Assembly: GCF_023055435.1 (NCBI RefSeq) | Contig: NW_025964223.1 | Span: 51,088,001 to 51,152,000, forward strand | DNA length: 64,000 nt | Source: Haliotis rufescens | Lineage: Eukaryota | Reading direction: 5' to 3' | Shown: piece by piece, positions 1 through 52,800 of the stretch | Layout: the number at the start of each line of letters is the position of its first letter | Numbering within the stretch: the first letter of the stretch is position 1 | Program-made: the position numbers and the translations under genes | The notes under the pieces: model-generated | The model's input: the letters and a program-made list of their open reading frames with translations, nothing else | Databases searched by the model: none | What the model was told of the DNA's origin: nothing

Positions 1-257
1 AGATCCGGAGTAGAATAGGTCTTCAGCAACCCTTGCTTGTAGTAAAAGGCGACTATGCTTGTCGTAAGAGGCGACTAACGGGATCGGGTGGTCAGACTCG
101 CTGACTTGGTTGATGCATGTCATCGTATCCCAATTGCGCGGATCGATGCTCATGATATTAATCACTGGATTGTCTGGTCCAGACTCGATTATTTACAGAC
201 CGCCGTCATCGAGGTGAAAGATCGCTGAGTACGTCGTTAAACAACAAACAAACAAAC
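1..257 (+). mobile_element. SINE-like family A copy (cut by window edge)
   Basis: Matches other family A copies (GTCGTAAGAGGCGACTAACGGGATCGGGTGGTCAG...) and ends in (CAAA)n. Confidence 0.85.
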
Positions 258-3300: not shown

Positions 3301-6300
3301 TTATGTAATAATTGCAGTTTTTAGATTTAATGTCTGATTAACTATGTATGCTGAAATGTTTTTGAATTATGGTTTTATAACATTTAATTTACGAACTAAC
3401 GAGAGAAAAATAAGATGGTTTTTAACAGTACGCCCTCATGCCAATTTAGTTGACGTCCCTCTTTATGACGTCAGAGCGCAGTCGTTTCCCTTTTCTCCTG
3501 GTGGGTCACATATATAAAGAGTGAGTGAGTGAGTTGGGTTTAACGCCGCTTTTAACATTATTCCAGTTATATCGCGGCGTGTCAGCTTAATGTGGGAGGA
3601 AAGCCCGAAGTGATGCAGGTCTTAGACGTTTACCACTTCGATGAAACCCACGAGCACGGGTATGGTGCTGACAAACCTAGAAACATAATCGGGGTGAACC
3701 GGGATTCGAACCCACAATCATAGGTTTATGGCGTGTCAAGGGGACGCAACTCTGCACAGCGAATCGCGGCGCCTTAGACGACTGGGCCACCCGTGCCCCC
3801 ACATATATATATAAAGAAGATATTGATGACAATTTCCTTACATATGCGTCACACTAGGATTTGTAAGATTTATTGCAAATTAAACATCTTAACGAATACA
3901 CGGGGAACTGTTAACGTTACGGCTCTCAAACAATGCATCGGATATGTCACGCCTGCTTTTAATTAAGATGGTCGCAGTAATTGGAATGCTGAAAATGAAC
4001 GGCAAATATGTCACTGTAAAGAATAAAGATACTTCCCTCTTCCGAAAGATTTATGTGGTGTAAGAAGTTTTTTTTGTCATTTACTCGATCCGATCAACGG
4101 TGTTTCGGAAAAATAATCAGGCAGTATTATAGGAGCCAAAGAGAAAGCAATGGCCCATGTGATAAATATACTACTCAAAACAAGTTAAGGATCACACGAT
4201 TCTTTCATATTGGTAATGTTAATCTGTCATGGCACGAGAGATTAACTATTGTAATATGAAATAATCAGGTGATCCTTAACTTCTTTTGAGTAGTATATAA
4301 GGTTTTACCTGATGAAAGCACGACCATCACACTTCTTAATAGACATTTTCTCCTATAGGTGTGTTCAGCAGTACACTGGTAATGCTATTTGGTTATCGTT
4401 GCACGGCGGTGGCGGGAAGTCTAGTCATTGGATGTGGGATATTGGGTACATACTTCTGTGATCACTCGAACATCGCTCTAGTTGCGTTCCTGTATGGTGT
4501 TCTGACAGGTATGTTTCCTTACACTATCTGCTGAAAACAGTAGTCTTGTCTATGGACATATTTAATACTTCACGGATTTGTATATATATTACCTCAAGCA
4601 ACCCGGAAAACCACAAGTGTCACAGACACTTTGTTTCAAATATAAGGCAACAGTAGGGTTCGCACAAAATGCATAGATGGAATAGGGTTAAGTTGACTTT
4701 GGTCAGTTATATGCGGTCGCATTTCACTGCATGACATAAGACCCGTGAAGATACGGGGTTGAATAGATCTTCAGCAACCCATGCTTGCCGTAAAAGGCGA
4801 CTATGCTTGTCATAAGAGGCGACTAACGGGGTCGGGTGACTTGGTTGATGCATGTCATCGTATCCCAATTGCGTGGATCGATGCTCAAGATATTATTCAC
4901 TGGATTGTCTGGTCCACACTCGATTATTTACAGACCGCCGTCATATAGCTGGAATATTGCCGAGTGCGGCTTTAAACAACAAACCAACCAACCAACTTGA
5001 CAAACTTTTGATTCGCGCCACTATTACAACACATATGTAGTGTAGTCACGGGTGTTGGAAGCCGTCAGTATTGCTGAATGCGGCGTTTAACAACACACAA
5101 TGAGGGACGCAGGGCATACAACCCCGTGAAGTATTGACAATGATATTTAATGAACCAGTCGTGTATTTAGCACTGGACCTTTTTAAAAAAATTTAGTCAT
5201 TTTCCCTATTTGTAACCAGTGGATACACCAGAATGAACATCAAGTACAGTCCCCTCCATTATAACCATAATGTTGTCATACGATTGACTCTCTAACTCTT
5301 CGTAAAATCGCAAAAATACATATTTCTGACCTTGATAAGTTGTAATACCAATTGAGGCGTCTGATTTGTTTGTGTGTTGTTTAACGCCGCACTCAGCAAT
5401 ATTCCAGCTATAAAAGAGTCTGGACCAGACAATCCACTGATTGACATCATGAGCATCGGCCCACGCAATTGGGATACGATGACATGTATTAACAAAGTCA
5501 GCGAGCCTGATCACCCACTCCCGTTAGTCTCCTCTTACGACAAGCATAGTCGCCTCTTATTGCAAGAATGGGCTGCTGAAGACCTTTTCAAACCTGGATC
5601 TGTGGCGTCTGAGACAATATGGATACGATTGCAATCTTTCAGCTAGAGGCATTTGGAGCGGCTCGATTGGGTTAAAGATGTTTTCTTTTCTTTCGTGGAA
5701 TGCTGCATTGATGACCATATGCATCATTACAGCAAAGTCGGCATTGCTGAATATCCACTTCTGGTGGTCGCTTCAGTGTATTAATGGCATACATCCAGGT
5801 GATATTGAGGCAGTTCCTTCATAGAATAAGCGTCACGCGAATAATATGTTCAACTTAAATAAAAGCGACAAAACACTTTCCATGTTCACGAGAAATCTCT
5901 GCCAAGAGCAGAGTCGATTGTACGGTTCCTACCCCATCATGAGCATGTGTCTATGAATCAGTATTTAATAGTTTTGGAACGTTCCGAATGTTTTGTCTAT
6001 TAAAGGGACTGTTTTCACGTAGCGTCGTGCGCCGACTCGTGCCTTCCCACGCGGTGACTCGTAGAGGAACAAAGATGGCGTCGGAGACAGAAGCAACGCT
6101 GTTTACGTGAAGCCAATGCCACATTTTGTTTGATAGCATGCAACCCATCAAGATATATCTACACAAACTATTGATTGAAATGTGGAATATTTTCTTCATA
6201 TTGGGATGTATTTTGACGTGTGTGTGAATTCATAGTTCTACTAATGGTGCTGTATGTGGTAGTGTATAAAGCATTGTATTTTGGAAAAGGTTTGCCACAA

Positions 6301-9300
6301 TCGTCATTTAAATGTTGAAAGGAACGTAGTCACACAATGGAGAAACAACACCCCTTCCCACAAGTATACACGTCGGGCATCATGTGTGTCGGGGTACAGG
6401 TGGGTTGGGGTGCGGTGAATTCGTAGACACCTTCAATCCTCCATTTTATGTGAAACGTTTGCGTAAAATAAGGCGCTTATATGGCGAAACGTTATTCAAT
6501 AACGTTACAGCAAAACAGGACGTTCATTAAGCGAATCAAACGCTTTTCAGAAACGGTACAAAAAGTTTTACTCTATTTGAAGCAAAATGTTAGAGTATCC
6601 TACCTCACCAATGGCGCCCGTCACAAACAAGATAATTGGGCAAGATAATTGTTCACTTGAATCGGGAACATTTGTTACAAGTCGAAATAGAGAATTGTAT
6701 CGAAAACCATTTTTGTTCCTGATGTGTAACTTGTGAACTGGATATCATTATCTTTTTTATGACAGGCATTGGACAGAGCATGATCAACGTCTCTGGTCTT
6801 TCGGCCGTTCTGGAGTATTTCAAACGAAAACGGGTTATTGCTCTGATACTGTTGAGTATTGGAAATTTGCTAATGACTCTCTTGGCTGTGCTCCTAATGG
6901 TACTTGTCTTCCCATCTGTGGGTATGGACAACAGCAGATCGTATTTCATCATGCAGTTTGTAATCACTGGCCTCCTCGTCCCAATCAGCTTGATGCTGAA
7001 GCCACTGAACCTAAGGATGAAAGGCTCTGCCGGTAGAAGTCTCATCTCAAGACAGATGGGAATTAAATGTTTTGTGGTCTACAAGAATCCAGCTCTTTAT
7101 ACAGTCACTCTAGCATTTTTCTTCTGGGAAGCAGGTAACATATAACCTGTGTAGATGCATGAGGAGAAAATATGTAGAATTTGATACGGGAAATAGAGAA
7201 TGAGCTTTGACTGTTCATGGGATGAAACATGACTCCTCTAGAGAACAAGAGGACCCTTACACATGCTACACCAAGCCCTATTAAAAATCACATATTCATA
7301 TTCTTATTAGCATCAGAAATATGCAGTCGCTGGTAAGCGTGAATGTAGGTTGGGGTTATCCCCGCTTTGCACAGTATTCCAATAATATCTTGCTGTAGGT
7401 GAAGATATGAGATCAATACAAACCATAATAATGTCATTATGATACTGACAGATTTAGACACTGAGGCAACCAGCAAATGCAAATTAAACCACTGGGCTAT
7501 CCGACCCGTGAAGATCCGGGATAGAATAGGTCTTCAGTAACCCATGCTTGCCGTAAAAGGCGACTATGCTTGTCGTAAAAGGCGACTAACGGGATCGGGT
7601 GGTCACACTCGCTGACTTGGTTGATACATGTCATCGATCTCAATTGCGTGAATCGATGCTCATGATGTCAGTCTCTGGATATTGTGGTTTTAGACTCGTT
7701 TATTTTGCAGACCGCCGTCATAAAGCTGGAACATTGCTTAGTGCGGCGTTAAACAACAAACAAACAAACTCTGGGCTATCCTCGTCCTACGTAATAAAAG
7801 ACGAATAGCATATATTATTTGAGTTCATAAATTTGAAAACGTCATTTGATTACATACATGTGTATGTTTTATAATTTCTTGTCGAATGTTTTTATATATG
7901 GTTTCAAGGTTTCGCCATCATCAACAAGAAGCTGCCTGGCTTTAAAGGGTTGATATCCATCCCTAATATGCCCGATGGAATGCTGCTGACCCTAATTCTA
8001 AGCGTCGCATTGATGTTGGGCATTGGGATCGCATGCTTCTTCATCAAGACCACCCGGCTCAGGACGACCATCATCATATTCTGTGTAAACTGCGTCATCA
8101 TCTGTTTCTTCAGTGTCCTGGCTAGTCAGTTGTACAAGGAGATCTACGCTACTGTGTATTCCGCAGTGGTCGGTCTGTTCAAGGGTGAGAATATATGCAA
8201 GTATATACATGTATCTACCCACGCGTAGTGTTCAGTGGTAGGAGTGGGGTGGTATCTTGTGATATTGTAGAGGTCTAGGAACTTAGTTGTACAAGGAGAT
8301 CTACGCTACTGTGTATTCCGCAGTGGTCGGTCTGTTCAAGGGTGAGAATATATACAAGTATATACATGTATCTACCCACGCGTAGTGTTCAATGGTAGGA
8401 GTGGGGTGGTATCTTGTGATATTGTAGAGGTCTTAGAACTTAGTTGTACAAGGAGATCTACGCTACTGTGTATTCCGCAGTGGTCGGTCTGTTCAAGGGT
8501 GAGAATATATACAAGTATATACATGTATCTACCCACGCGTAGTGTTCAATGGTAGGAGTGGGGTGGTATCTTGTGATATTGTAGAGGTCTTGGAACTTAG
8601 TTGTACAAGGAGATCTACGCTACTGTGTATTCCGCAGTGGTCGGTCTGTTCAAGGGTGAGAATATATGCAAGTATATACATGTATCTACCCACGCGTATT
8701 GGTCAGTGGTAGGAGTGGGGTGGTATCTTGTGATATTGTAGAGGTCTTGGAACTTAAGGTGAGGTGAGGTGAAATGGGGTTTAACGTCGCGTCCAAGATT
8801 ATTGCACTTATATAGCGACGTGCATGCATGTGTATGTGTGTGTGTGTGGCTGCTTGTACTAGTCCGTGCTGATGCCGATTTATAGTGCTAGCACACTAAG
8901 ATACCATGCCGCAGTTTAACATAATATACTGTCTCCGAGCCGAGCAGTCCTTGTTTTAGCTCCTTAATCCCTTAATGCCGAGCGCGAGACAGGGTAACAA
9001 CAAGTACCATCTTTTAACTTCTTTTGGTATGACGCGGCTGGGGATCGAACCCCGGACCTTCCGCTCTCCGGGCGGACGCTCTACCATTAGACCACGGTGG
9101 CGGTCGTCTTGGAACTAAGTCGAGCGTAACTAATCTTCAATCCATGAGAATATGACATGCCATTCATGCTGCCATTCTGTAACGACGCTGGAAAAAGATT
9201 GAAATATTGTTAAACTGCCCAAATAATAATACTTATATGCATAATTAAAAAACAATAAACATTTATTCCACGTCCCTCCTCATTGCACGAGTCATGGGTT

Positions 9301-11343
9301 AATGACCCTCGACTCCCATAGCAGTGATATACTCAGATCATATATCCAAGTTGCATTTTACAGTCGAGAACTGCAAAATCTCTTCTCTTTTCAAGGGTTT
9401 ACAGATCCGGTGATGCTGTTCACCGTCCCCGTGTTTGTTGGGGAAACCAACGTGGCCATCGGCATTGGCATGGTAACAGTGGGACAGGGCCTTGGATCAT
9501 TCATCCTGCCTTACCTTGCAGGTTGGTGTAAGCAAAAAAGGCCACTGAACATTTGTGTTTACTGTAAAATACGCTTAAATATTTACCTTTATTTAACGTC
9601 ATCCAGTGCAAATAGAACCACGTCCCTCCATGTACAGAGGGTTAGCCTTGTGATTAAAGCGTTGGCTCGTCACGCCGAGGACCCGGGTTTGATTCTCGAC
9701 ATGTGTTCAATGAGGCCTATTTTTTGTTCTTGGTATCATTTGAGAATTGCTTGAAGCTGATTTCACACCTGACTCACTTTGTTTTCAGATAATAAACCGC
9801 CTAGGACGTTGACAATATAACATGATCTCGTTCAGTAGTCAGGAATTTGTTATCACTACCCTCTTCCCACTTCATATTGGTTTGTTAGATCAGTATGAAT
9901 TATAAAACCCTGAGGTAACCTCGCATACATACTACCAGTACATGTATGTCATCGACGTCTTTGGTGTGATTATTGTGATATCTCTGCCTTGGTGAAATAC
10001 CTTCTATTACGAATTCTGACCCCCTCACATCATGTGCAAAACAAACGGATTTCAAATTAATATATTGACATTCATCAATCAATGGCGTGTCAGTTTAATG
10101 TAGGAGGAAAGCACAAAGGGATGCAGATCTTAGACGTTTACCACTTCGGTGAAACCCACGAGCACGTGTATGGTACTGGCAAACCTAGAAACATAATCGG
10201 GGCGAACGGGTATTCGAACCCACGATCATAGGTTTCTGGCGTGCCCAAGGGACGCAACTATGCACAGCGAATTGCGGTGCCTGAGACGACTGGGCCACCT
10301 GTGCTCCTCTTTATATTTATGTGGCATTTATGAATCTTTGGTAACAAGAAGTCAGAAATACTTGACATCAATTTATGGTATTCTTTGAAAGCGGCGTTTC
10401 GGAACAGCGGCGTTTCGGAACAGATGCTGGTGCTTTTACCAAACAAATAATCAATATCTGAGTTGGACATGGTTATGTAGCTAAAAATCAAATACACGGA
10501 AATTAGAAAAAAACACAAACTAAAAAGGGTGACAAAATGGTGATAGAGGAGGCTTGTAACAGCAAGGAGGCTGATGTACTCTCTAGTATAACCCCATGAG
10601 GATTCTGTGACAGAACATGGCCATGAACATACTGCTTGTCGTAAGAGGCGAGTCAAGATGATGGGGGCGTCGTTTTCGTGTCATTATGCCCTGAGGAGAC
10701 AATTGCTCATGCTGTCAGACACTCGTTGATTTGACACATACATGATTATATGCAGGCCCTCGTCAGAACTCTGGTATAATCCAAACTGAATTGATAACAA
10801 GAATCACTTACTCATTCATTACTCCGACACGGGCGATCCGCTCCCCTCCCACGTCTCCACCCTTCCTCCCAAATACTGTAAGCCTGATGTTCAAAAACAA
10901 AGCAGCCCTTGCCCTGAAATCGTTTATTGCAGTAAGGTCCAACTTACAAAATGCCATTATGACAGTCGTCCACTTCTGTATATGCTTACATCTCACGGTA
11001 AATTGTATACCATTATTTTTTATCAGATGAGATCGACAGAAGAACAAAGAAACTCGACCTGTGTTTCTATCTGGTGGGCGGTTTGTATCTGTTGGCTTCT
11101 GCAGCTATGCTTCTGACCTACGTCTTACACAAACGGGCAAAGGTTGAAGATTCAACTGCAAGGAAATCTGATGAAAAGGTCGAGGACCATCAACAACCAA
11201 CCAGCTCTCCAACCGAAATCAAAGATGGAGACACATCCTCTCATGAAAAGGGTAATGAACCGTCCCCTTCAAATAATCATGCAGAGGACGCGAATTTACA
11301 AATATTTACCGTATACAATTCGGACATTGAACAAGAGAGATAA
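333..11343 (+). CDS. SLC16/monocarboxylate-transporter-like MFS protein, copy A (5'-partial, 7 exons in window, 582 aa visible)
   Basis: Exons 333-576, 2590-2856, 4359-4508, 6766-7134, 7909-8184, 9396-9521, 11027-11343. All introns are GT-AG and phase 1; total 1749 nt in frame to TAA. Shows the SLC16 N-terminal motif PPPDGGKGW, the TM2-3 loop LFGYRCTAVAGS, the TM4-5 motif YFKRKRVIAL and about 12 hydrophobic segments. In-frame stop at 282-284 and no ATG before 333, so the start exon is upstream of the window. Confidence 0.88.
690..875 (-). mobile_element. Penelope-like element 3' fragment
   Basis: Minus-strand FYGRHIEDISKFDASVTKIMQFP matches FSGRHVEVIFKCKAPVTKMMQFP of the element at 35620-36500; the flanking GCACCCGTC-type motif is also shared. 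Confidence 0.55.
1523..1696. mobile_element. MITE, Tc1/mariner-pogo type
   Basis: TA-flanked, imperfect TIRs CAGTAAACTACGGTTATAACGAAC / GTTCGTTATAAACGTACTTTACTC, with internal GTTCGTTATA subrepeats. Confidence 0.65.
1888..2095 (-). mobile_element. SINE family D copy (5'-truncated)
   Basis: (GAGT)n tail on + and body matching 3518-3800. Confidence 0.75.
2261..2556 (-). mobile_element. SINE family C copy (5'-truncated)
   Basis: (GAGGT)n tail on + and body matching 8757-9105; ends about 33 bp before exon 2590. Confidence 0.85.
3518..3800 (-). mobile_element. SINE family D, full length (tRNA-like head, V-domain-like core)
   Basis: Minus strand: A box TGGCCCAGTCG, B box GGTTCGAATCC, core CTTTCCTCCCAC, (ACTC)n tail; flanked by a CACATATA..TAAAGA target-site duplication. 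Confidence 0.88.
4171..4293. mobile_element. Fold-back MITE (about 123 bp), TA-flanked
   Basis: TIR CTACTCAAAACAAGTTAAGGATCAC / GTGATCCTTAACTTCTTTTGAGTAG; second copy at 59736-59857. Confidence 0.8.
4740..4996 (+). mobile_element. SINE-like family A copy
   Basis: Starts GACCCGTGAAG and ends (CAAC)n; small internal deletion. Confidence 0.85.
5364..5602 (-). mobile_element. SINE-like family A copy (diverged)
   Basis: Reverse complement of the family A body and tail. Confidence 0.75.
7503..7770 (+). mobile_element. SINE-like family A, full length
   Basis: GACCCGTGAAG start; TSD CTGGGCTATCC at 7492-7502 and 7771-7781. Confidence 0.9.
8128..8755 (+). repeat. 4 x 157-bp tandem repeat spanning the exon 5 / intron 5 junction of copy A
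   Basis: Units start at 8128, 8285, 8442 and 8599; each holds the last 57 nt of the exon and the GTGAG donor. Confidence 0.95.
8757..9105 (-). mobile_element. SINE family C, full length (tRNA-derived head, Meta/RUDI-like core)
   Basis: Minus strand: TGGTCTAATGG A box, GGTTCGATCCCC B box, core GTCATACCAAAAGAAGTTAAAAGATGGTACTTG; TSD GTCTTGGAACT(T)AAG. The core assignment is from recalled similarity and is unverified. Confidence 0.85.
10085..10305 (-). mobile_element. SINE family D copy (tail missing)
   Basis: Matches the head and core of 3518-3800. Confidence 0.8.
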
Positions 11344-15642: not shown

Positions 15643-15896
15643 GACCCGCGAAGATCCGGGGTAGAATAGGTCTTCAGCAACCAAGCTTGCCGTGAAAGGC
15701 GACTAACGGTATCGGGTGGTCAGACTCGCTGACTTGGTTGATGCATGTCATCGTATCCCAATTGCGTAGATCGATGCCCATTATGTTAATCACTGGATTG
15801 TTTTGTCCAGACTCGATTATTTACAGACCGCCGTCATATAGCTGGAATACTGCTGAGTGCGGCGTTAAACGAGAAATAAACAAACAAACAATAACC
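15643..15896 (+). mobile_element. SINE-like family A, full length (single 22-nt module variant)
   Basis: GACCCGCGAAG start; TSD TACGAATG. Confidence 0.88.
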
Positions 15897-20777: not shown

Positions 20778-21919
20778 GAATATTAAGCGGCATTCTGACG
20801 GTCTTGACTGGTTGCCGGTTGATGGAGCTGATCAGAAGTGTCCTGACGGCCGTGGGGTATCTCGGAGCCGCGTTTTGTGATATTTCCGATGCCCATCTCA
20901 TCTCCATCCTATACGCATGCTTGCCGTAAAGGGTGACTATGCTTGTCGTAAAAGGCGACTAACGGGATCGGGTGGTCAGGCTCGCTGACTTGGTTGATGC
21001 ATGTCATCGATCCCAATTGCGTGGATCGATGCTCATGATATTAATCACTGGATTGTCTCGTCCAGACTCGATTATTTACAGACCGCCGTCATATAGCTGG
21101 AATATTGCTGAGTGCGGCGTTAAACAACAAACCAACCAAAAAAATCCTTCCTCTACGGGGCACTGCCAGGTTAGCTCTGTCCAATATTATTTTGAGTGAA
21201 GCTACAGCCTGATATTTTGACATTTGCGTTCACATATGAGCTGAAAACATGAAACTAATATTACTTCTGAGCACCCCCCGAAAGGCAGGGGGTCGAATGG
21301 AAAATAAACATGCAACCCATATAGAAATGTATGTAGATTTGAATTTAATACATATGTCACTTTTGTTTATTTGCCCAGGTTATGTTTCACAATTTGTCAC
21401 CTCCATACTCTTGCTTGTTTCACCAAAGTTGTGAACGTCTGAGACATACATAATTTGTTCTTGAACATTATCATTGATTGGGTGATCAGGTTTAAATTAA
21501 CATATTCTGTAAAATTCAAATTCTTAAGATCATCCATAGCCCTGTTGTCATATTTCAGGTATTGCTCACAACCTGATCGTAGTGGCTTACCTCACGGTAA
21601 TACTGCAGCGATTTAGAAAGCGCCGTCTGGAAGCTCTACTCATCCCTCATGCTGGTGCGACTCTGGGGGCTACGGCTTCTTCCACACTTGTTCCATTCGT
21701 TTTTTATCTCCTTGGCATGAACAACTGGAAGCTTTATCTGCTCTTGCAAGCGGGTGTTGCCAGTTTTATGATTCCGGCTAGCCTCTTTCTGAAACCACCG
21801 GATGAAACGCAAAGCCAATCAAAGCCTACAATCTTATATGATGGGTATGGATGAGCTGAAGGTCTTCCGATCAACTCTGCTCTACGCCTTTGCGGCGGTC
21901 TGTTGCTTGTGGGGCGGAG
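20778..21919 (+). pseudogene. SLC16-like copy B, pseudogene (two residual exons)
   Basis: Exon 20778-21169 (GILSGILTVLTGCR...) is interrupted by a SINE at 20916-21144. Exon 21559-21919 is 361 nt versus 369 nt in copy D; an 8-nt deletion after LFLKP causes a frameshift and a stop at 21852-21854. No homologues of the other exons were seen. Confidence 0.85.
20916..21144 (+). mobile_element. SINE-like family A (5'-truncated) inserted in a copy B exon
   Basis: TSD TCCATCCTATACG (20903-20915) / TCCTTCCTCTACG (21145-21157). Confidence 0.9.
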
Positions 21920-24596: not shown

Positions 24597-24853
24597 CTTG
24601 TTTTGTTTGGTTGTTGTTTAGGCCGCACTCAACAATATTCCAGCTATATGACGGCGGTCTGTAAATAATCTAGTCTGGATCGGACAATCCAGTGATTGAC
24701 ATCATGAGCATCGTCCCACGCAATTGGGATACGATGACATGCATAAACCAATGCAGCCAGACTGACCACCCGATCCCGTTACGACAAGCATAGTCCCCTT
24801 TTACGGCAAGCATGGGTTGCTGAATACCTCTTCTTCCCCGGATCTTCACGGGT
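24597..24853 (-). mobile_element. SINE-like family A copy
   Basis: Ends on + with CTTCACGGGT, the reverse complement of the family 5' end. Confidence 0.85.
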
Positions 24854-28000: not shown

Positions 28001-31000
28001 GGGACACCAGAAATGGGCTTCACGCATTGTACCCATGTGGGGAATCGAACCCGGGTATTCGACGTGTGAAGAGCGAACACTTTAACCACTAGGCTACCCC
28101 ACCGCCGAGTAAAACATGAACACTGCTTCAACAAATTTTGTGCCGTGGAAAAAGTTTAAAGTCATAAGGGATGTGTCTGATTGTAATGTCTTGGTGCGTC
28201 AACTATTCTTTCACTGACATCAACTTTACTTTAATACTTGTAGTGGATGGTTTATCTTGAATATAGGAGTAGGTCGTTTGACCAGGATCCTGGCCGGCTA
28301 AGGGACACAACTTAGGGACAGAACAGCGAATTGTGCCACCGAAGACCACTCGATCACCTGATTTTTTGTCTCCTTGTGAAGGATGTGTTTTCATATTTCA
28401 GGAATTTACAATGGACCATGGCACTGGCCAAACACTGACCATCCCGACAGCCGATGCGGTTGTGGATCCGCGTGATGGGGGAAAGGCATGGTGCTCAGTA
28501 TTTGTTGTTGTGATTTTAACATCTTTGATGGAAGCGCTCATCGTTCTTCAGCAACCAACTCTATTCTATATGAAAAATACAAATATCTCATCTGGAGGCG
28601 ACTGGAGACAGTTGTTATTATCATCTAACCCGCCAGCCGATGTTCTGACAGTAGTGGACACGTACAAGGCTCTGTTTTCCATATCAGGTATGCCATGGAT
28701 ATAAATAATTTTATCATAAAATGGGTAGGTGTCTCGGCAGGATAAAGCCAACTGATAAAAACGGTATATGTGAAGGTCATATACGGATAACGATGCAAAT
28801 ATCAAAGGTCAGGAAGGTACTTCTTTCAATGTTTACAAAGAAACATGTCGTCGCCCATGTCAATCGGCGATCGAGTCAGAATTAACCATCGGGAATTTGG
28901 AGATATTACAAGGATAATTTCCATCACTATCAAAACATTAGTCAAAGATACTGACAATCAGTGTCCAAGTGGGAAGTAGCCAAGGCATTTTAAAAAATTT
29001 GGCAACTTTGAAGATATAAATTGCGAAACAAGTTAGCGATGCCGAGGATACTATCCTTGCGGGATCAGTTTCTATACCTCCGCGGCTTGGGGAGTTTTCC
29101 CCAATTTAAAACAGTTGCATTTGGCCTAAATGTGTCCGATTATTTGCCTTGTTTCATTTTATCGCTGTGTGTACATCAGCCTCAGCACCTCGTAACGTTG
29201 TGGCAGGGTAGGCAGACTCTAAACAAACGTGACGTCTCATGCACTGAGGTTAGGGTAACTTCCCTTTGATAAAGGGCAGTTACTTTAGCGGGTGAACCGA
29301 TGAAACACTGTGTAGGCAATTCTTATTTTGCCTATATGTTATTACGCCACTGTCTAAGAAACAGGTTTCAGTTGGAACTATTTTGACTGTTGTCACTGCC
29401 CGATTGACAAATCATTGAATTTTTCTGACGTAATATATATTATACGCGCATTCCGGGGAAACCTGCAATATTTACTTAATGTGTATGAGAGATGAGAACA
29501 GGTTTGGCGACGACTGAATTTAAGAATGACATTATGTGAAGGTGAGGTTATCACGCGTGTGTGTTTTTGGGTAGAATGGGTGATAACATCCATATGCCAT
29601 GCACACCAGATATTGCTCAAGTGTGGAATATTACACTGGCGGCTTTCTGTAGTGAGTGAGTGAGTGAGTGAGGGTGGGTTTCCGCCGCTTTTACCAATAT
29701 TCCAGCACTATCAACGGCGAGGGAAACCAGAAATGGGCTTCACGCATTGTACTAATGTCGGGAATCGAACCCGGGTCTTCGGCGTGACGAGCGAACGCTT
29801 TAACCACTAGGCTACCCGACCATCCCCGGCTTTCTGTAGATATAGTTACGTAGCAATTTGTAGCACGTGAATTGAATAGAACATCGCTGGTCATGACGTG
29901 TATGGTTAATTAAGAATTGACAATAAGTTTTGCGTTTATGGAGGCACCCCATTTGTCAGACACCTTAAAATCACAAATGTCACGGTTGACTTCTCCGAAT
30001 GTCCAATACATGTTACCCAAGTGGTAAAATAGATTAGTCCCGATCATACCCCGTTTGTTACACACCTCACGAACATGTAAGACATAATAAACAAATAGGC
30101 GTTAATAGTCACACAAATAATTCAAATAATTTAAGAGTCAACCCAATTTCACAAGACTGCTCACATGATCCAAATACTGCATTGTGGTCTTGGCCCCATG
30201 AGTCAACTGGTCTTTGAGCATGCCGAGGCGGTTGTCTATCTTTCGGGAAAGTCGTCTCCGAGGTGGAGGAACAGCACTAAAGTCGTACTGAACGATTTTC
30301 ACTTTTGACTGCTTTTTCGATTTTCGTCATTATCTTGATGAGACGGAAAAGGTTTAGGTGTCGGCAGGAGAGACTGGCATTCAAACGACTGTTGAAACCT
30401 CAAGGCTGTTATTGGTCCTAGGACCGAATGTCTCATGGTGGTTCCACATTGGAATAGTGAAGAGTGATTCTTCGCCAACCCAGGTGCTGACAATATAGTC
30501 ATTGAAGAGCTCAGCAGACAGCACATCTGGGCAGGTTTCTTAAGGGATGGGAAGACGGGGCAAGACCGAGGCACGACGAATCCACTTCTCAACCTCTGGA
30601 TCATCCCGGTAGTCCTCCGCTAGTCCATGGGTCTGGACTTTCTCCAAACAGCTTGCGCACAAATGATAAAGCATCCTCACATCTGCATCAGGTAACTCGA
30701 TCTGTACCTGCTCGGATGCCAGCGATCTCAGAATATGTCTGGATTTTAGCTGGAGAGAAAGGTTGACCTGCAATACGCTCAACATCTTGAGGTGACTCGG
30801 GAGACGACGATAGGCAGTAATGGTACGACTGGGCTTCAGGGCATGTCCGGTAACAGGCCAAGGGATAATCCTCATCGTGTTTGTTTAAACAATATATATT
30901 CGTACATTCGGCATTTGTTTACTATAAAATATAGAATAAACAATTGATAAAAAGAATGAACACTGTATAAAATATGGTCGTATTTGTCCAATTCCACATT

Positions 31001-38736: not shown

Positions 38737-39007
38737 GACACGTGAAGATTCCGGGGTAGACTAGGTCTTCAGCAACCCGTGCTTGCCGTAAAAGGTGACT
38801 ATGCTTGTCGTAAAAGGCGACTAACGGGATCGGGTGGTCAGGCTCGCTGACTTGGTTGATGCATGTCATCGATCCCAATTGCGTGGATCGATGCTCATGA
38901 TGTCAATCACTGGATTGTCTGGTCCAAACTCGATTATTTAAAGACCGCCGTCATATAGCTGGAGTATTGCTGAGTGCGGCGTTAAACAACAAACCAACCA
39001 AACCAAC
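38737..39007 (+). mobile_element. SINE-like family A, full length
   Basis: TSD TACAGTGAA(G/A)TGG; the empty site is visible in the paralogous region at about 63485. Confidence 0.9.
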
Positions 39008-40545: not shown

Positions 40546-41068
40546 GGGTTTAACGCCGCTTTGAACAGTATTCCACTTATATCACAGAGGACCCGTGAAG
40601 ATTCCGGGGTAGAATAGGTCTTCAGCAACCCATGCTTGCCGTAAGAGGTGACTATGCTTGTCGTAAAAGGCGACTAACGGGATCGGGTGGTCAGGCTCGC
40701 TGACTTGGTTGATGCATGTCATCGATCCCAATTGCGTGGATCGATGCTCATGATAATAATCACTAGATTGTCTGGTCCAGACTCGATTATTTACAGACCG
40801 CCGTCATATAGTGGTAATATTGCTAGGTCCGGCGTTAAACAACCAACCAACCAACCAATATATCACAGAGTTTCAGCTTGATGTGGGAAGAAAGCCCGAG
40901 GTGATGCAGGTCTCAGACGTTTACCACTTTGGTGAAACCAACGAACACAGGTTTGTCCTGACAAACCTAGAAATATAATCAGGTTGAACCGGGATTCAAA
41001 CCCACCTGCCCAAGGGACGCAACTCCGCACAGCGAAATAGCAGCGTCTTAGACGACTGGGCCACCCGT
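40546..41068 (-). mobile_element. SINE family D interrupted by a nested family A copy
   Basis: Tail at 40546-40589, remainder at 40859-41068. Confidence 0.8.
40590..40858 (+). mobile_element. SINE-like family A, full length, nested
   Basis: Perfect 12-bp TSD TATATCACAGAG at 40578-40589 and 40859-40870. Confidence 0.92.
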
Positions 41069-44974: not shown

Positions 44975-46685
44975 ATGAGTGGACACGAAGACAAGGACCA
45001 ATGTCCCCCGGGGACATCAGAGGAAGCAGGAGCGGAGGTAGGGGTGTCTACTGGAGGCTGAAACTGTCAATACTAAAGGAGGACTTGTAGTCGTGTTCGC
45101 GTTTCTGTTGCTATAAATAAGAATCTATAAATCAAGAAAAATTGACCTTAGTCTTGGAAGTGTGGTGTTTGTTTGTGGGTTAAATCACTTTAAGGCGGCG
45201 ATCTGTATATTCGGATTTGGACCAGACAATCCATTGATTGAAAACATGAGCATCGATCCACGCAATTGGGATACGATGACATGCATCAACCAAGTCAGCG
45301 AGCCTGTCCACCCGATCCATTTAGTCGCCTCTTACGTTAAAACATAGTTTGTAGGGACTTATATTCGTACCTGGATCCAAACGGGTTAGGCCTAGAAGGT
45401 TTTTTCTATTCTATCAGTAGACTGGTCATTCGATTCGTGGTAAAACATGATTGATTCTTATTAACTTGATATACTGGTATGCTATACCATGAGGTATAGC
45501 AAATGGAATTCAGTCAGTAACGTGTTGTATAATGATCCGCGCCTCTATGACCACATTTTCCAATAATATATCAGGCAATGTTGTTTTTTGTCTACATAAG
45601 TTCGGGCTTTCCTCCCACATCAAGCTGACAACTGAAAGTACCGTTCATCGAAGCGTTAACCCCCGCGTTAAACTCATACATTCATCCGTATGCTAATTGT
45701 GCAATTTTACAACGGAGATTTGCTAAGTATTATATAAATAAGACCCCCGCAAACATGTACACATTAGCCCTGTTGGGGTTAATTTCGGTTTCGGAAATGG
45801 GTCTTAAATGGGTAACCCTTCTGGGCCCCGTTCGTGTTCCAACAGGGTCCATATGGGCATTTATTTTACAGCCTACATGCGACCATAGATGGCGTGTGTC
45901 TGTGATGGTGTTTATATGGTTTGTTCTCTGCATGCATATCATATGTAACCCTTTTGTGGCATCACTACATCATACATTAACACGGATGTAAAATAATATA
46001 TCTTATATATATTATGTATTTCATAAATATATGCGTTACAAAGGTAGAATTTAACCCATTCAAAAATTACTGCGCGGGTCACTTTTGTAAATTATTGTAA
46101 ACTCTTTATTTTAGCAAATGTTATGATTCAAATTCAACATAAAAATACTGAGTAAAATTTATCTCGGCCTAATTTATATTATCTTCAAGATGAACAATAT
46201 AGTTGAGCACAAGAACAAATGACAACATTGTACCGTATTTTAATAATGAGACAGACAACGTTCTTAACTCCAATAACGCAATCGGGTAGCCTCGGGTTAC
46301 AGCGTTCGCTCGTCACGCCGAAGACCCGGGTTCGATTCCCGACATGAGTACAATGTGTGAAGCCCATTTCTGGTGTCCTCCGCCGTGGTATTGCTGGAAT
46401 ATTGCTAAAAGCGGCGTACAACCACACTCACTCACTCCAATAACTAACGCAAACAGTCATGACAATAGTTGTCATTCAACACAAAGGACAACTGTTTTGG
46501 TTGTATTTTGTATTTTGTTTATTTACTTCCTTTATGAACAGCATTCATGCATAGTTCGACCTTTTTGTTGTGAAATGTTAACCTGATCCATGAAACCAAG
46601 GAAATAATGGGTTGTCCCTACTGTAAGTAAACGTTCCTGCTTTGATTACTAAAGAAATTACTTTGCCTGATGTGATTATATATAC

Positions 46686-46815: not shown

Positions 46816-49800
46816 ATGAGTCTTTCTCTCAGATAATTGTCATCATTGTAAAAGAAATAGTCTAAGTTACCAGAAGTCGTGGGCGTAGCTTTCACCTTTT
46901 GCAATTGTACAAGCAATTTGGAAACATGGATTGCGAAGACATTTTACGATGACGATCTGGGTATCAGTTCCCATAACTGTGCTTGTAGACCTCTGCCACT
47001 TGGTCGGCATTTTCCCGAATATGAGATAGTTTACTTTATTTAGTGGGCGGTTGGTTTGTTGTTTAACGCCGCACTCAGCAATATTCCAGCTATATGACGG
47101 TGGTCTGTAAATAATTTAGTCCGAACCTGACAATCCAGTGATTAATATCATGAGTATCGATCCACACAATTGAAATCGATGACATGCATCAACCAAGTCA
47201 GCGAGCCTGACCACCCGATCCCGTTATTCGACTCTTACGACAAGCATAGTCGCCTTTTGCGGCAAGCATGGATTGCTGAAGACCTATTCTACCCCGGATC
47301 TTCACGGGTCCCAACATGACGGAAAGTGTCCATACCTTGCTGTGTATCACTGTGACTACATTTCTTAACGAAATAACAGGCAGACTCTAAAGAAACGTGA
47401 TGCCTCATTCACTGGGTTCTGGCACTAGCCTGATTAGACACAGCGACGATTGACCGCGGGAACCAGCTAAGATGCCCAACAGACGGGAGTAGCCTCCCTT
47501 TGATAAAGGGAAATAACTCAAACCGGAGGTCCGATTGATTACCGCGAAAGGTGATCATTGACATTGTGTGTAGGCAATTGTGTTTTTGCCTACAAGGTTG
47601 TTAGGCTACTGCCTAAAAACCAGTTTCAGTTGAAACTACATTGTCTGTTGTCACTGTCCAATTGACTAAGCGCTGACCTTTTGACGCAATATATTAATCG
47701 CACATTCCAGGAAAACTTGCAATTGTGAGGAACCGTTTGTAATGATAGAATTTAAGCATAACATTATGTGATAAAGAGGTTGTAGATTTGTGAGTTTTGG
47801 GATGATAAATATCCTCTATGAGGAGTGAGTGAGTATTGCTTTACGTCGCTTTAAGCAATATTCCAGCAACATCACAACGGGGGACACCAGAAATGAGCTT
47901 CACACATTGTACCCATGTCGGGAATCGAACCCGGGTCGTCGGCGTGACAAGCGAACGCTATAACCACTAGGCTCACAAAACGTTCTCCCATTACACTGTT
48001 TATTCATAATACATTACGCAAGTAAACAACATCAAACAAACATGCATGATACATGACACTAGCCATCCAAATTCACACTCAAGTGATAACCGCTGTGCAT
48101 TAATATGAGTAATATTGGTTGGGACCTATGTTGAACCCAGTCGGCAAAACCCTTGACTAGTTTCTTCTCCTGGCCCACACTTAACGCAGGTGGGGCCATG
48201 TGTACATGCTGGCGCGGACGGTGGAGCAATTACTAACATCAAAAGATGAAGATATGTACACTGACGACGTTTTATTTCATTCACTGGCTTGATAACAATT
48301 TAAGAACTTCCAAAGAAACGTTGCTGACAATAGAACAAGGGGTTGATATCACTATACTCACAACTTACGTGTTTGTTCGCCGTTCATTTGGAACCATGTT
48401 GAACATTTATGAAATATGGTTTGTGAATATTTGTTACAATCACCAATTGTGATTAGGACAGATAAGTTTAACTCATTTTATGTAAGTGAGATATGTAGAT
48501 ATTTGTTACGTTTTTTCACTGTTTTAATTGCTTACATTGCCCAATATTTTTCGGCGCATCAAGTTTCCTGCCTTGGACCTACTTGCACAAAGTGATCTTA
48601 TCACTAAGACGATCGCAACTCCCTTTAATTTAACACTGATTTACGGCCGCCGTAGCTCCAAGGTCGCTTTTCAATACGGCGATAAACACAACTCACTCAC
48701 CCACTATCACAGTTCAGAACAACAGTAAATAACGACAAAACCTTTCCAACTAAATATGTCGCTGAAGTAGATTTTTAATGTTTCATCACAAATGCGTGTG
48801 ATTGCTTAATGCTTGTGCATACACAACAAGATTAACTATCAGTAGCAACGCATTAGTGATTCCATTTGATAGCTGTGATGCAGATTTAATTTTGTAACGA
48901 GCTTTACATTATACTAGTTCCACAGACAAACGCATCTAACCGTTATGGGTAGATTCAACCTTTCATGTCCTAACCGCGTGTATTAGCGGGTTCTTCTATG
49001 ATGTTCTGTAATGTCAGCAATTACTGGGGTGATAAACGTCATTGAGAGGACCCCACCCTTCACTCCCAGAACCGAGTGGACGGCCTGTGACTACTCTGTG
49101 ATATGGGGTATTGTTGTGTGTAGTCATTTCCATCCATTGTGACCCTGGGGAAGAATTAGATCGCCAATTGACCCCGAGCAGACAAAAGGGGATTGTTCGA
49201 TGGAGTTGATCGTCCCTCATTTCTGTAATCGACCGCCTACGTGGTCTAGTGGTAGATCGTCCGCCCGGAGAGCGGAAGGTCCGGGGTTCTATCCCCGGCC
49301 GCGTCTTACCAAAATACGTTGAAAGATGGTACATGTTGTTACCCTGTCTGGCGCTCGGCATAAAGGGGCTAAAACAAGGACTGGTCAGTATACTGTGTCT
49401 GAGCGGGGTATCCATGTTAAACTGCGGCATGGTATCTCAGTGAGCTAGCTATAAATCGGCATTAGTCGGACTAGTACAAGCGGCCACACACACACACACA
49501 CGTGCATCCACGTCGCAATATAGGTGCAATAATCTTGGACGCGACGTTAAGCACAATTTCACCTCAATTCACCATTTCTGTAATCTCTCGTGTGCCATTA
49601 TGTGCAGGCCGCGCTTACACAACTGGAAGACTCATTGTTGAAGCGTTGACAATGTACTGATCGGGTGGTCACCATTTCTGTAATCTCTCGTGTGCCATTA
49701 TGTGCAGGCCGCGCTTACACAGCTGGAAGACTCATTGTTGAAGCATTGACTATGTACTGATCGGGTGGTCAGGCTCGCTGACTTGGTTGATGCATGTCAT

Positions 49801-52800
49801 CGTATTTCAATTGCGTGGATCGATGCTCAAGATGGCAATCACTGGATTGTCTGGTCCAGACTCGATTATTTACAGACCGTCGTCGTTTTGCCTGACTCTT
49901 ACTGAGTGCGGTGTTAAACAACAAACAAACTCAAACTGTATCTCCTTGTGAAAGTTTCTTCCATATTTCAGGAATTTACCATGGACTACGGAACTGGGCA
50001 AGAACTGACCATCCCGACAGCCGATGCGATTGTAGATCCCCCTGATGGGGGAAAGGCATGGTGCTTAGTATTCTTTTCGCTGATTTTAGCATCTTTGACG
50101 GAAGCATTCATCGTTCTTCAGCAGCCGACTCTATTTTTGATGAAAAGTGCAAATATCTCATCTGGACAGAGCCAGGGGTTATTTTTACCTACCTTAGATT
50201 CTCTGTCAGCCGAAGCAAGAACAGTACTGGACACTTACAAGGCTCTGTTTTCCATATCAGGTATGCCATGAAAATAAATAATTAAATCAAAGTATATGCA
50301 TGGTCATTTTCAATCATCATTTATTCCGTTCAGACCAGCTATTGTTCTAGGAGAGGTATTATAATAGGGTGTGTTACATTACTCAAGCGACTTGCGACCC
50401 CAAGCTGAGTGCGGCGTAAAAAAACAGACAAACAACATTTAAATCCTGCAGTTTTTGAACAATAATTCAAACGCCTGTTGGTGTAAGAACGTTTATGCTT
50501 GACAGTGATCTGAATCTTCTTGTTAAGTCTATGTGAGTCAACGCAACGTTGCCGAAAGTCGAAGAACAACTTTAGTTTCTCTGTCACAATTATTGAATCT
50601 CATAAAATTAATTTAGCATTTAATTCTTTGGCTATGCCAATCACGTCTCCAACAATGTTTCCATACAATGTAACGTAAAAGGACAATAGAGCGTAGTATG
50701 TATGAGAATTGTTACCGTTTCTTGCAGTATAGGGAAGGTTTTGCTTTAATAGTTTTAAACCTGGTCATGTATTTTATGTTTTCGTTACCCCACCAACTAT
50801 TTAGCGAGCACTTAAAACAATAATGTTAAGCAATTATATTTGTATGAAAGGCCTTAGTTAATTGTTGCATGTGTTTGATCAATTTTCTTTTTTATCAATC
50901 CCGTTAAAGGAATACTTAGCGGCACTCTGACAGTCTTGATTGGTTACCGGTGGGTGGCGCTGATAGGAAGTGTTCTGACGGCCGTGGGATATCTCGGAGC
51001 CGCGTTTAGTGATCTTTCCAATGTCCATCTCATCTCCTTCCTATACGGGGCACTGCCAGGTTAGCTCTGTCCAATGGTATGTCAGTAGAGACTGCAACCT
51101 GAGCTTTACTTAATCATAATCGTTTTTTTGATTTTGACAATTGCAAAACATCTTTTTTGATCAGCTGATAACATGAAACTGACATGCCGAATTAAGTTTT
51201 AGCACGGTTGTGGAATTAAAATACAGGCCACACATATGCACATTTGAAGTGAATATAGATGTCACTTTTTTATTTTCCTTCAAAGTCAAGCTGGTAGGTC
51301 GTGAAATAACTGAAATGTCGTTCACAGTGGCGTGAAACCAAACTAACTAACTCACTCACAATGTTCTCAAACGTAATCAAAGATCAGCTGATCGGGTCAT
51401 TAATTAATATATTCTGTTGAGCTGAAAATGCTAAGATCGACTATAAGAAAGTTAAGACAGTCCTCTTATCATATTTCAGGTATGGGTCATAACCTGGTCG
51501 TAGTAGCATACATCACGGCAATACTGCAGTATTTTAGAAGGCGCCGACTGGTGGCTCTACTCATCCCTCATGTTGGTGTCATCCTGGGATCTATGGCTTT
51601 TTCCATTATGTCATTTCTCCTTTTTGGATCCCTTGGCATCAACAGCTGGAAAAGTTATCTGATATTTCAAGCGGGTGCTGCTGCTGTTATGATCCCGACT
51701 AGCCTTTTTCTGAAACCCCTCAATGCACGGATGAAAGGCCAAGCCAATCAAAGCCTAATATCTTATATGATGGGTATGGATGAACTGAAGGTCTTCCGAT
51801 CAACTCTGCTCTACGTCTTCGCTGCGGTCTGTTGCCTGTGGGGCGGAGGTAGGAAATAACGAACACCGAAAATATTCTGATAAAGAGAGAGAACCATACC
51901 GACAAAGAATTAGTAATATATACGTGGTGTTTATTTGTAGTTTTGAAATTTTGTGTTTTCAACAATAAACTTGTCTACTTTGAAATGAGTATTTGTCTTT
52001 GCGACAGCCTTTAATACTATCCCCCAAATTCTTGTTTCTGTAATGCCCAACCAAAAGACATCCCACCAAATTATAAATATCTCCACCCTACATTAAGGCA
52101 TTTCTCTTGGAACGTCTAATGTTTTCCCCTTGACACTTTGCATTGTCAGCCCATCACGTCCACCGACCTGCTTACTGAACTGTGTCTCCAGGAAAAATCA
52201 CGACAATTGGATAGATTTTAAAACACAGAATTACAATTGATCAACCAAGTTGTTTTCTATTTGAAGGTATCAGTGTCATTGAGGCCAAACTACCGAGTTT
52301 CAAGGGTCTACTCTGGTTCCTGCCCGCTGGACAGTTGTTGGTATACATCATATTGCTGGCCAGTCTCGTGGGCACGTGCTGCTCGTGCTGTATCTCCAGT
52401 AATATCCGTCTGAGGAGTGTGGTCATTGCGATGGTCGTCTTCAGTGGCATCCTGTTCCTCCTCAACATGATGGCCAGTCTGTTGTATGACTTCATCTATG
52501 CCATCTGCTATTCCATACTAGTCGGAGTGATAAAAGGTATAGAATCCATGTGAGGTCAATAGAGGTCTGTGTAATTATATAGGTTGTCGGGGGCACATAT
52601 GGCTCATTTGTCTAAAGCGTCGGAATTCCAGTAGAGTTTCAAGTCAATTAATCAAGCCAGAATCCTGATAATGGTAAACGCCCTGATTATGAACATATGT
52701 GTGACAGTACCATACTTGGGCTGGGTATACCCAAATGGCATTACTTAAAATTAAGACGTGCGTCACTTTGAGTGTCCGCCCGGGCATACTGTTCAAACCC

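Follow-up and report, generated by a model that had tools for sequence, protein, structure and literature searches.

An abalone SINE family shares with LINEs and viruses a pseudoknotted head that may block 5'-to-3' exonucleases

LP ('LINE-promoter') short interspersed elements (SINEs) break the textbook rule that SINE heads derive from small RNA polymerase III (Pol III) RNAs. As described for abalone, oysters and periwinkle (PMC4758252), they measure 255-256 bp, carry no small-RNA head and share a ~70-bp head with the 5' ends of Nimb-17_LMi, I-3_DR and RTE-9_CPB. The accessible text identifies no partner long interspersed element (LINE), presumes a promoter and gives no structure, and how LP-SINEs are transcribed has been a question since 2016 (PMC4758252). 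Here we analyse a SINE family of Haliotis rufescens, represented by a full-length copy with a doubled hairpin module at 7503..7768 (+ strand) of a 64,000-nt stretch of contig NW_025964223.1 (positions 51,088,001 to 51,152,000; the whole stretch is referred to as the window). The family belongs to the published LP type (PMC4758252), an assignment made by description and not by the Hdi_LP or Hmi_LP sequences: it has a ~70-bp Nimb-17_LMi-type head, no tRNA head, target-site duplications (TSDs), terminal short repeats and a LINE-type tail, and the lack of a tRNA head, the TSDs and the terminal repeats are likewise found in Hdi_LP, Hmi_LP, Oco/Oed_LP, Sgl_LP and Lsa_2. The published Haliotis families, at 255 bp, are near it in length, and the 'Nimb-17 homology' block of the scallop elements contains the same AGAAU linker and hairpin core. 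Compared with the present analysis, the accessible part of the LP-SINE paper holds no fold, viral homologues or partner LINE, and the AATATA hexamer that the paper cites is absent from the tail described here.

Exoribonuclease-resistant RNAs (xrRNAs) lie at the start of viral 3' untranslated regions (UTRs), are often arranged in tandem and require a pseudoknot (PMC8374639, PMC11702639). Class 3 xrRNA halts the exonuclease Xrn1 at the 5' base of its helix P1 (PMC11702639), and according to a review the next step is to find xrRNAs among cellular RNAs (PMC8374639). By analogy with them we suggest, at a probability of about one half, that the ~70-nt SINE head is an xrRNA-like block to 5'-to-3' exonucleases, which would trim host read-through RNA to the fixed start of the element.

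The fixed start is evident in the window, where the family counts 12 copies of at least 116 nt, in agreement with the approximately 12 of an earlier note on this sequence, together with seven tail-only matches. Elements are ~265 bp long and flanked by TSDs of 11-16 bp. The sequence GAC(C/A)CG(T/C)GAAG opens the copies at 4740, 7503, 15643, 38737, 40590 and, on the minus strand, 47310, as the note had observed, and in four of these (7503, 15643, 38737 and 40590) 13-bp TSDs with one mismatch each end immediately before G1; no TSD was found around the copies at 4740 and 47310. For the copy at 7503 the two duplications occupy 7490..7502 and 7769..7781 (+). Genome-wide (1.33 Gb) the exact 28-nt head has 6,881 matches, and a density of 188-294 copies per Mb extrapolates to 250,000-390,000 copies. 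Among 110 genome copies with head and tail, taken from loci picked by similarity to two window copies, 49 had a scoring TSD, which ended exactly before G1 in 29, overlapped the first 1-3 bases in 13 and lay elsewhere in 7. Thirty loci taken in genome order included 13 with a TSD (11-16 bp), of which nine were exact, two lay at +1, one at -1 and one at +3, and 30 of 90 non-targeted copies reaching the tail started at positions 1-3. A second cluster of starts lies at +131 to +139 (11 of the same 90 copies); nested insertion was considered as its cause and rejected, with one sense case in 92.

Downstream of the head, a middle body of unassigned origin (7594..7715, +) shows no similarity to either a tRNA-headed SINE or the LINE 5' UTR (score 22, shuffled maximum 30), and leads to a LINE-type tail with an (AAAC)n repeat (7716..7768, +). 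In alignments made with the copy at 47050-47310, this tail is homologous to the 3' end of the motif-bearing LINE described below at a score of 41 (shuffled maximum 29.5) and to that of a tRNA-headed SINE at 38 (shuffled maximum 28). No tRNA head was found, including a hidden one in the middle body, which sets the family apart from tRNA-derived SINEs (SINE2). The note's statement that the family lacks a B box holds in the strict sense, as GTTCGA is not present in the SINE, but a B-box-like nonamer, GATCGATGC, occurs at about +150, its pattern being matched in 15 of 30 genome copies and mutated in the copy at 7503; neither tRNA homology nor an A box was found upstream of it.

The head itself is predicted from comparative sequence to be a covarying H-type pseudoknot (7503..7535, +; 18-20 homologues) followed by a short helix, a second and weaker knot, and then a near-invariant hairpin. 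After a G1-A2 leader, helix P1 pairs 7505-7508 with 7517-7520 and is separated by a one-base loop, U7 (7509), from P2, which pairs 7510-7516 with 7529-7535; the A-rich linker between the strands (7521-7528) ends in AGAAUA. P3, a 3-bp helix (7536-7538 with 7546-7548; 7536..7548, +), stacks on P2 and holds within its loop the 5' strand of P4 (7541-7545). It overlaps a 22-nt tandem duplication (7544-7565 and 7566-7587, +), each unit of which comprises a P3 3' strand together with the conserved hairpin P5; a C.A pair weakens the first hairpin (7550-7564), and the second (7572-7586) is intact. A UAA linker and the P4 3' strand (7589-7593) follow (7587..7593, +). As the note had reported, the 22-nt module is duplicated in most window copies and single at 15643, and a tolerant pattern applied to 30 position-first genome copies counted 18 double, 11 single and one triple. 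P4, the second pseudoknot, is supported across families and weak in this one (A.C mismatch, shifted register).

Homologues were collected by exact-pattern scans with the near-invariant 19-nt core (18-19 nt in the scans), which returned 10 viral loci and at least 122 metagenome loci from many SINE-like families, and with a pattern of core plus linker, which returned eight loci in GTDB. In 20 representatives, hand-picked at one or two per family and anchored by sequence only, P2 was paired in 133 of 160 cells, a count that includes the mostly unpaired U7 column, against a mean of 95 and a maximum of 117 in 3,000 rounds of dealing strands among elements, and 50-78 when strands were slid by 1-2 positions. 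P1 was paired in 75/80 cells (null 66) and P4 in 68/100 (null 50), and the viral rows alone gave 45/48 for P2 (null 32). RNAalifold, run on a structure-blind MAFFT alignment of 18 sequences, recovered P2, P5 and, unprompted, P3, which was paired in 90% of cells and contained 15 cells with double changes; P4 was paired in 57% on this raw alignment. Taken over all five helices, 82.8% of cells in the alignment were paired (69.1% shuffled, 39-48% slid), and 67 cells show double changes, compared with 27 after shuffling. P5 is almost without variation and formed part of what the search pattern selected, so its pairs carry no evidential weight.

This fold differs in part from the four helices first proposed. 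Support is strong for GAAGAUC/GGUCUUC, and 18/18 homologues have the GUCG/CGAC hairpin, with the limits just given for P5. Neither the GGGT/ACCC pseudoknot (48/80 cells, null mean 46), whose register was wrong, nor the CCCGT/ACGGG closing helix (46/100, null 44.5) is conserved, and together they reach 53% pairing against 50% shuffled; the closing helix belongs to the nested minimum-energy fold of this one family (z -2.05, 7503-7598). The pairing-preserving changes noted in the copy at 4740 are single-copy decay, since C14 and a hairpin G are also lost, and have no weight. An Rfam search with the head and its homologues, another check that had been proposed, matched no family; the note had likewise been unable to fit the head to HDV (hepatitis delta virus), hammerhead or pistol ribozymes, and no match was obtained at the gathering score or at E values up to 5-10.

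The same motif is found in viruses. Six distinct RNA-virus-like contigs carry it on the coding strand, past the last stop codon: L187 and L480 (RdRP_3 and capsid), L192 (RdRP_3), L180 (RdRP_4), L171/L191 (peptidase A21 capsid) and L166 (S-domain capsid, with a long open reading frame (ORF) without a Pfam match). It lies 4, 9, 22, 72 and 99 nt past the stop in five of them and ~120 nt past it in L480, and occurs as a tandem pair in L166 and L480. A seventh contig, of a DNA virus (L178; 212,482 bp, AT-rich), carries the motif at 8001-8045 between two same-strand ORFs, ~150 nt before the ATG of a ~1,050-aa ORF; its length would fit an insect iridovirus, which also carries an HDV-like ribozyme elsewhere. 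A covariance model built from 15 cellular elements only scored these six RNA-virus contigs and the DNA-virus contig at 42-74 bits, and other loci sharing the search core at no more than 26; all these loci had been preselected for the core, which inflates their E values, and it is the contrast that counts. In a descriptor search the viral motifs scored 29-37 and 82 chance sites at most 24. The sense-strand placement in viral 3' UTRs indicates that the motif acts as RNA, and its occurrence in RNA viruses means that a DNA promoter cannot explain it. Loosened viral patterns yielded mostly chance matches, first in 46 loci and then among 80 of at least 120 loci, where the best score was 24 against 29-37 for true motifs; one new virus was gained. 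Occurrence in prokaryotes was rejected: one of the eight GTDB loci (L207) is a chance match within a gene, and the other seven resemble eukaryotic SINE or LINE DNA inside bacterial assemblies and look like contamination, among them a LINE 5' end with the motif, a 521-aa ORF1 and an endonuclease within a symbiont assembly (L213). A phage collection contained nothing beyond a 20-bp chance match.

With the L213 endonuclease as query we obtained 150 scored relatives in the genome and examined the 20 with a long ORF2. All 20 carry the motif 300-450 nt upstream of ORF1, and their P2 differs from that of the SINE by compensatory changes. The earlier proposal that the head is a structured, pseudoknotted LINE 5'-UTR module, and no tRNA head, was right. 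The family (e.g. C582:1688972-1697272) is young and intact, with ~760 heads genome-wide, a zinc knuckle in ORF1 and an ORF2 of ~1,231 aa with endonuclease, reverse transcriptase (RT) and RNase H domains. These LINEs begin ~58 nt upstream of the motif, at G1 of a minimal HDV-like fold with almost no P4. Compared with the features set out in PMC10879173, the module satisfies a descriptor consisting of a 7-bp P1 with G1.U, P2, P3/L3, GG and a C in J4/2, with the element starting at G1; of 335 motif sites 22 match this descriptor, all in these LINEs. Rfam RF02682 scores the module at 26 bits (E 0.0096), below the gathering score of 44, and TSDs end at the HDV-like G1 in two of the LINEs (L279 and L294). 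We thus predict that the module ahead of the LINE motif is a minimal HDV-like ribozyme; the register of the SINE start begins at the end of its P2. In genome order (30 loci), 29 of 29 distinct LINE motifs follow a whole HDV-like fold and none of the 29 sampled copies starts at the motif; genome-wide, 762 matches to the LINE motif and 734 to a pattern that includes the junction were found, the two patterns not being strictly nested. A cut or a transcription start at the 5' edge of the motif would strip the upstream ribozyme in one round, and its retention in all 29 therefore disfavours both.

In nine LINE copies, identity falls from 98% in the ribozyme and 94% in the motif to 87% in the rest of the UTR, 80% in the RT, 77% in the 3' UTR and 53% in a fixed ORF1 window; exchange of 5' ends among copies could also be a source of the high 5' identity. 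Before the hairpin, U is replaced by G in every sampled LINE motif except one, and CUAA by CCAA or CCGA in about half of them. Through these changes P5 gains a G.U or G-C pair, and virus L480 contains both variants. Six of the LINEs cluster, inserting into or beside one another (C445 31-32 Mb, C46 5-6 Mb and C101 8.5-9.1 Mb), and ORF1 and the 3' UTR are far more variable than the first 130 nt, as if several subfamilies shared one 5' end.

Three further SINE families show which part of the motif the 5' end follows. They start 6 nt before U7 (A in 23/35, G in 13/16 and G in 10/11 copies), while their spacing from U7 to the core varies (47, 49 and 60 nt); the end thus tracks P1 and not the core. 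In a fourth family, a fusion with a tRNA head, the sequence becomes constant no earlier than 4 nt before U7, and the scallop copies begin with 2-5 C residues in Fig. S2 of PMC4758252. A G precedes 1,598 of 6,881 heads genome-wide (23%) and 11 of 51 ribozyme-headed LINE controls; an apparent excess of G at -1 in a small sample (21/61) was gone in the genome-wide count. One extra base at the TSD junction was seen in 0/49 and 1/13 cases. Copied caps thus appear to have left no sign, which is weak evidence, because caps are not always copied. In three small-RNA runs from a single study, 64 reads mapped to the SINE and 53 to the LINE 5' UTR, with pile-ups in antisense only and none at G1; such libraries cannot reveal the start of a 260-nt RNA, and the counts bear no weight on it. 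Antisense pile-ups on the SINE tail and on the LINE motif, seen in one of the three runs for one SINE and one LINE 5' region, are probably piRNA-type silencing.

With cutting and initiation at the motif edge both disfavoured, an exact start is left to trimming against a block. Copies would be transcribed passively within host introns and UTRs; after splicing or decapping, Xrn1 or Xrn2 would degrade the host part and stop at the base of P1, and the remaining RNA would be copied in trans by the tail-recognising RT and endonuclease of an RNase H-bearing LINE. A viral RNA blocked in this way would leave a 3' subgenomic RNA. In the LINE, an HDV-like ribozyme would later have been fused exactly at the 5' edge of the motif and would now make the end, the motif being retained as a guard, as a factor-binding site or as both, and the near-invariant hairpin domain, duplicated in the SINE, may have a second role in binding a host factor. 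The earlier proposal that the head frees the RNA from host transcripts thus probably stands, but release by self-cleavage is disfavoured by the 29 of 29 LINE motifs that lie behind an HDV-like ribozyme. Like the class 3 xrRNAs of Tombusviridae, Luteoviridae and ST9a (PMC11702639), the motif has a hairpin loop engaged in a long pseudoknot, a 5' end at the base of P1 and a place at the start of viral 3' UTRs, and its tandem arrangement in two contigs parallels the tandem flaviviral xrRNAs (PMC8374639). It differs from class 3 in sequence, in its P1 of 4-5 bp, one-base L1 and A-rich L3, in the extra 3-bp helix, second knot and invariant hairpin, and in its presence in cellular retroelements; Rfam gave no match to the described classes 1a, 1b, 2, 3 and coremin, and the covarying fold contains no three-way junction. 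More tentatively, the motif may represent an exoribonuclease-resistant RNA of a new class, in which an invariant hairpin accompanies a stacked double pseudoknot. Such a class would have moved among RNA viruses, a DNA virus and the LINEs and SINEs of animals, and would let the enzymes of RNA decay carve a SINE without promoter or ribozyme from host transcripts.

Several observations weigh against a block. A pseudoknot alone is insufficient, known frameshift pseudoknots do not stall Xrn1 (PMC10321173), and the likeness to xrRNAs, which wrap a 15-16-nt ring around the 5' end and halt Xrn1 at a discrete site without help from proteins, is a claim that the head would work alike. P4 is weak in this SINE family and an alternative nested fold is lower in energy, while the shuffle nulls ignore relatedness, the representatives were chosen by us and the core had been preselected by the search pattern. 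Four SINE families begin with a purine, as expected for a transcription start or an HDV-type cut. In the LINEs, no copy of 29 was trimmed to the motif, the variant motifs could be disabled for some activity, and yet the motif is strongly conserved behind the HDV-like fold; as that fold is thought to be protective in itself (PMC11331408), a pure 5' guard seems redundant. This redundancy, together with the invariant core and the duplication of the SINE hairpin, favours a role in factor binding or translation, and the strongest competing explanation, though we regard it as unlikely, is that the motif is a host-factor or ribosome-binding element resembling a cap-independent translation enhancer, which would act in the 3' UTR of uncapped viral RNA and in the 5' UTR of the LINE RNA, left uncapped by the ribozyme cut. 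SINE RNA would then be parked near translating LINE messages, its fixed start being a by-product of a ribonucleoprotein that blocks decay. The motif is 94% identical exactly where RNA would be uncapped, its 19-nt core resembles a binding site more than a mechanical block, and it is precisely this hairpin that the SINE has duplicated. Its hosts include tombus-like and toti-like viruses, which are uncapped, and in the DNA virus it precedes a long ORF. Tombusviridae 3' UTRs carry cap-independent translation enhancers such as the BTE and PTE, which have a short, highly conserved hairpin core, and enhancers of this kind bind eIF4F or the ribosome; the motif differs from them in fold, matches no Rfam translation-enhancer or internal ribosome entry site family and occurs also in SINEs, which have no ORF. 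An exact start would still require an exonuclease stop, so that a binding role, itself proposed by analogy, may coexist with a roadblock.

Quite improbable, in our judgement, is a new class of self-cleaving ribozyme cutting before G1 and silenced in the LINE that gained the HDV-like fold. A nucleotide-exact start with free upstream sequence, the purine at +1 in four families, the compact double-knotted fold with its conserved core, and a second domain with HDV-like strand order and a CUAA linker would all suit a ribozyme, several LINE clades are ribozyme-headed (PMC5786205, PMC6765202), and silencing could be read into the differing core flanks of the LINE motifs. Those LINE-type variants also occur in L480, however, and 0/29 LINE copies start at the motif despite intact, conserved helices. 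The would-be cut-site base varies in five viral motifs (T, C, A, C, A), and a linear viral genome cut there would, we infer, lose its 3' end. P3/L3 and P1.1 of the nested double pseudoknot of HDV are absent from the SINE head, the HDV descriptor matching only the ribozyme upstream in the LINEs, and Rfam models of hammerhead, twister, twister-sister, pistol, hatchet and hairpin ribozymes gave no match (gathering score, or E up to 5-10). Least probable of all is an internal promoter in the head (Matetovici et al. 2016), or a Pol III unit that uses the B-box-like nonamer at +150. The head stands at the 5' end of LINEs and SINEs where it replaces tRNA heads, the base at +1 is a purine, half of 30 copies have the nonamer, and Pr77 of L1Tc is both promoter and ribozyme. 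A promoter, however, leaves the compensatory changes in P1-P3 and the presence of the motif in RNA viruses without a DNA stage unexplained, and a start at the motif edge would delete the HDV-like fold of the LINE. The spacing from start to core is free to vary, there is no cap-type extra G, the nonamer is preceded by neither tRNA homology nor an A box, and no copies cluster where such a promoter would start.

What was already known comprises the SINE type and its shared head (2016) as well as ribozyme-headed LINEs and bipartite elements (PMC5786205, PMC6765202). To this the present analysis adds helix P3 and the second knot, a start register that stays constant, a test for copied caps, a LINE of the partner type and, with its ribozyme in front, a control. 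In the literature and Rfam, with Repbase, Dfam and subscription journals outside the search, we found no description of the fold, its viral homologues or a LINE combining HDV-like fold and motif. The HDV-like heads of R2, RTE and Ingi/L1Tc (Pr77), and of SIDEs, RIME and NARTc, are likewise structured 5' modules of ~70 nt that unrelated LINEs share and that fix the 5' end (PMC6765202, PMC5786205), and the SINE resembles such short derivatives in having both a LINE-type head and a LINE-type tail; the HDV-like fold, in contrast, is here a separate module of the LINE and absent from the SINE. A bipartite non-autonomous LINE (Kojima 2018) would consist only of the two ends of one parent LINE; head and tail of the SINE both match the LINE found, but at ~70-75% identity, and the SINE lacks the HDV module of that LINE, has another terminal repeat and, with an unrelated middle, is not a plain internal deletion. 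The LINE with its HDV-like ribozyme fused at the motif edge constitutes a natural control and shows that 5' modules can be stacked. If the head does block exonucleases, one cellular genome would contain hundreds of thousands of xrRNAs, and decay would be a fourth route to a retroposon 5' end beside Pol III, Pol II and ribozymes; if it serves translation instead, viruses and retrotransposons would have in common a translation element undescribed in the literature searched.

The motif tolerates insertions. In four loci, insertions of 12 to ~60 nt, some of them hairpin-forming, lie exactly in the linker before AGAAUA, a natural engineering site for structural work on the RNA. One locus holds two whole motifs in tandem, and two metagenome loci and their relatives have the motif fused ahead of a tRNA-like head, as in the scallop MESC SINEs. 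The abalone genome also retains an older subfamily (four loci), in which the P2 sequence differs and P4 is better paired.

The remaining copies in the window vary in age and completeness. Those intact at the 5' end lie at 4740..4992 (+) and 47050..47310 (-), and those with 13-bp TSDs at 15643..15885 (+, single module), 38737..39001 (+, a young subfamily with one extra T in P2) and 40590..40855 (+, same subfamily). The copy at 24602..24853 (-) begins at position 2 and has its second module partly deleted, and that at 1..257 (+) is cut by the window edge. Copies at 5365..5601 (-, 12-bp TSD), 20913..21139 (+) and 49759..49937 (+) are 5'-truncated, that at 45221..45389 (-) is older and diverged, and a decayed motif-like head at 10589..10667 (+) was detected by the covariance model only (26 bits). 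A genome search for a partner LINE with an (AAC/AAAC)n tail returned SINE copies only. The window also contains tRNA-headed SINE families at 29600-29830 (-) and 9030-9101 (-); the element at 29,700 also has the LINE-type tail and, as the motif-bearing LINE does, terminates in (CTCA)n, and it may be a direct client of that LINE.

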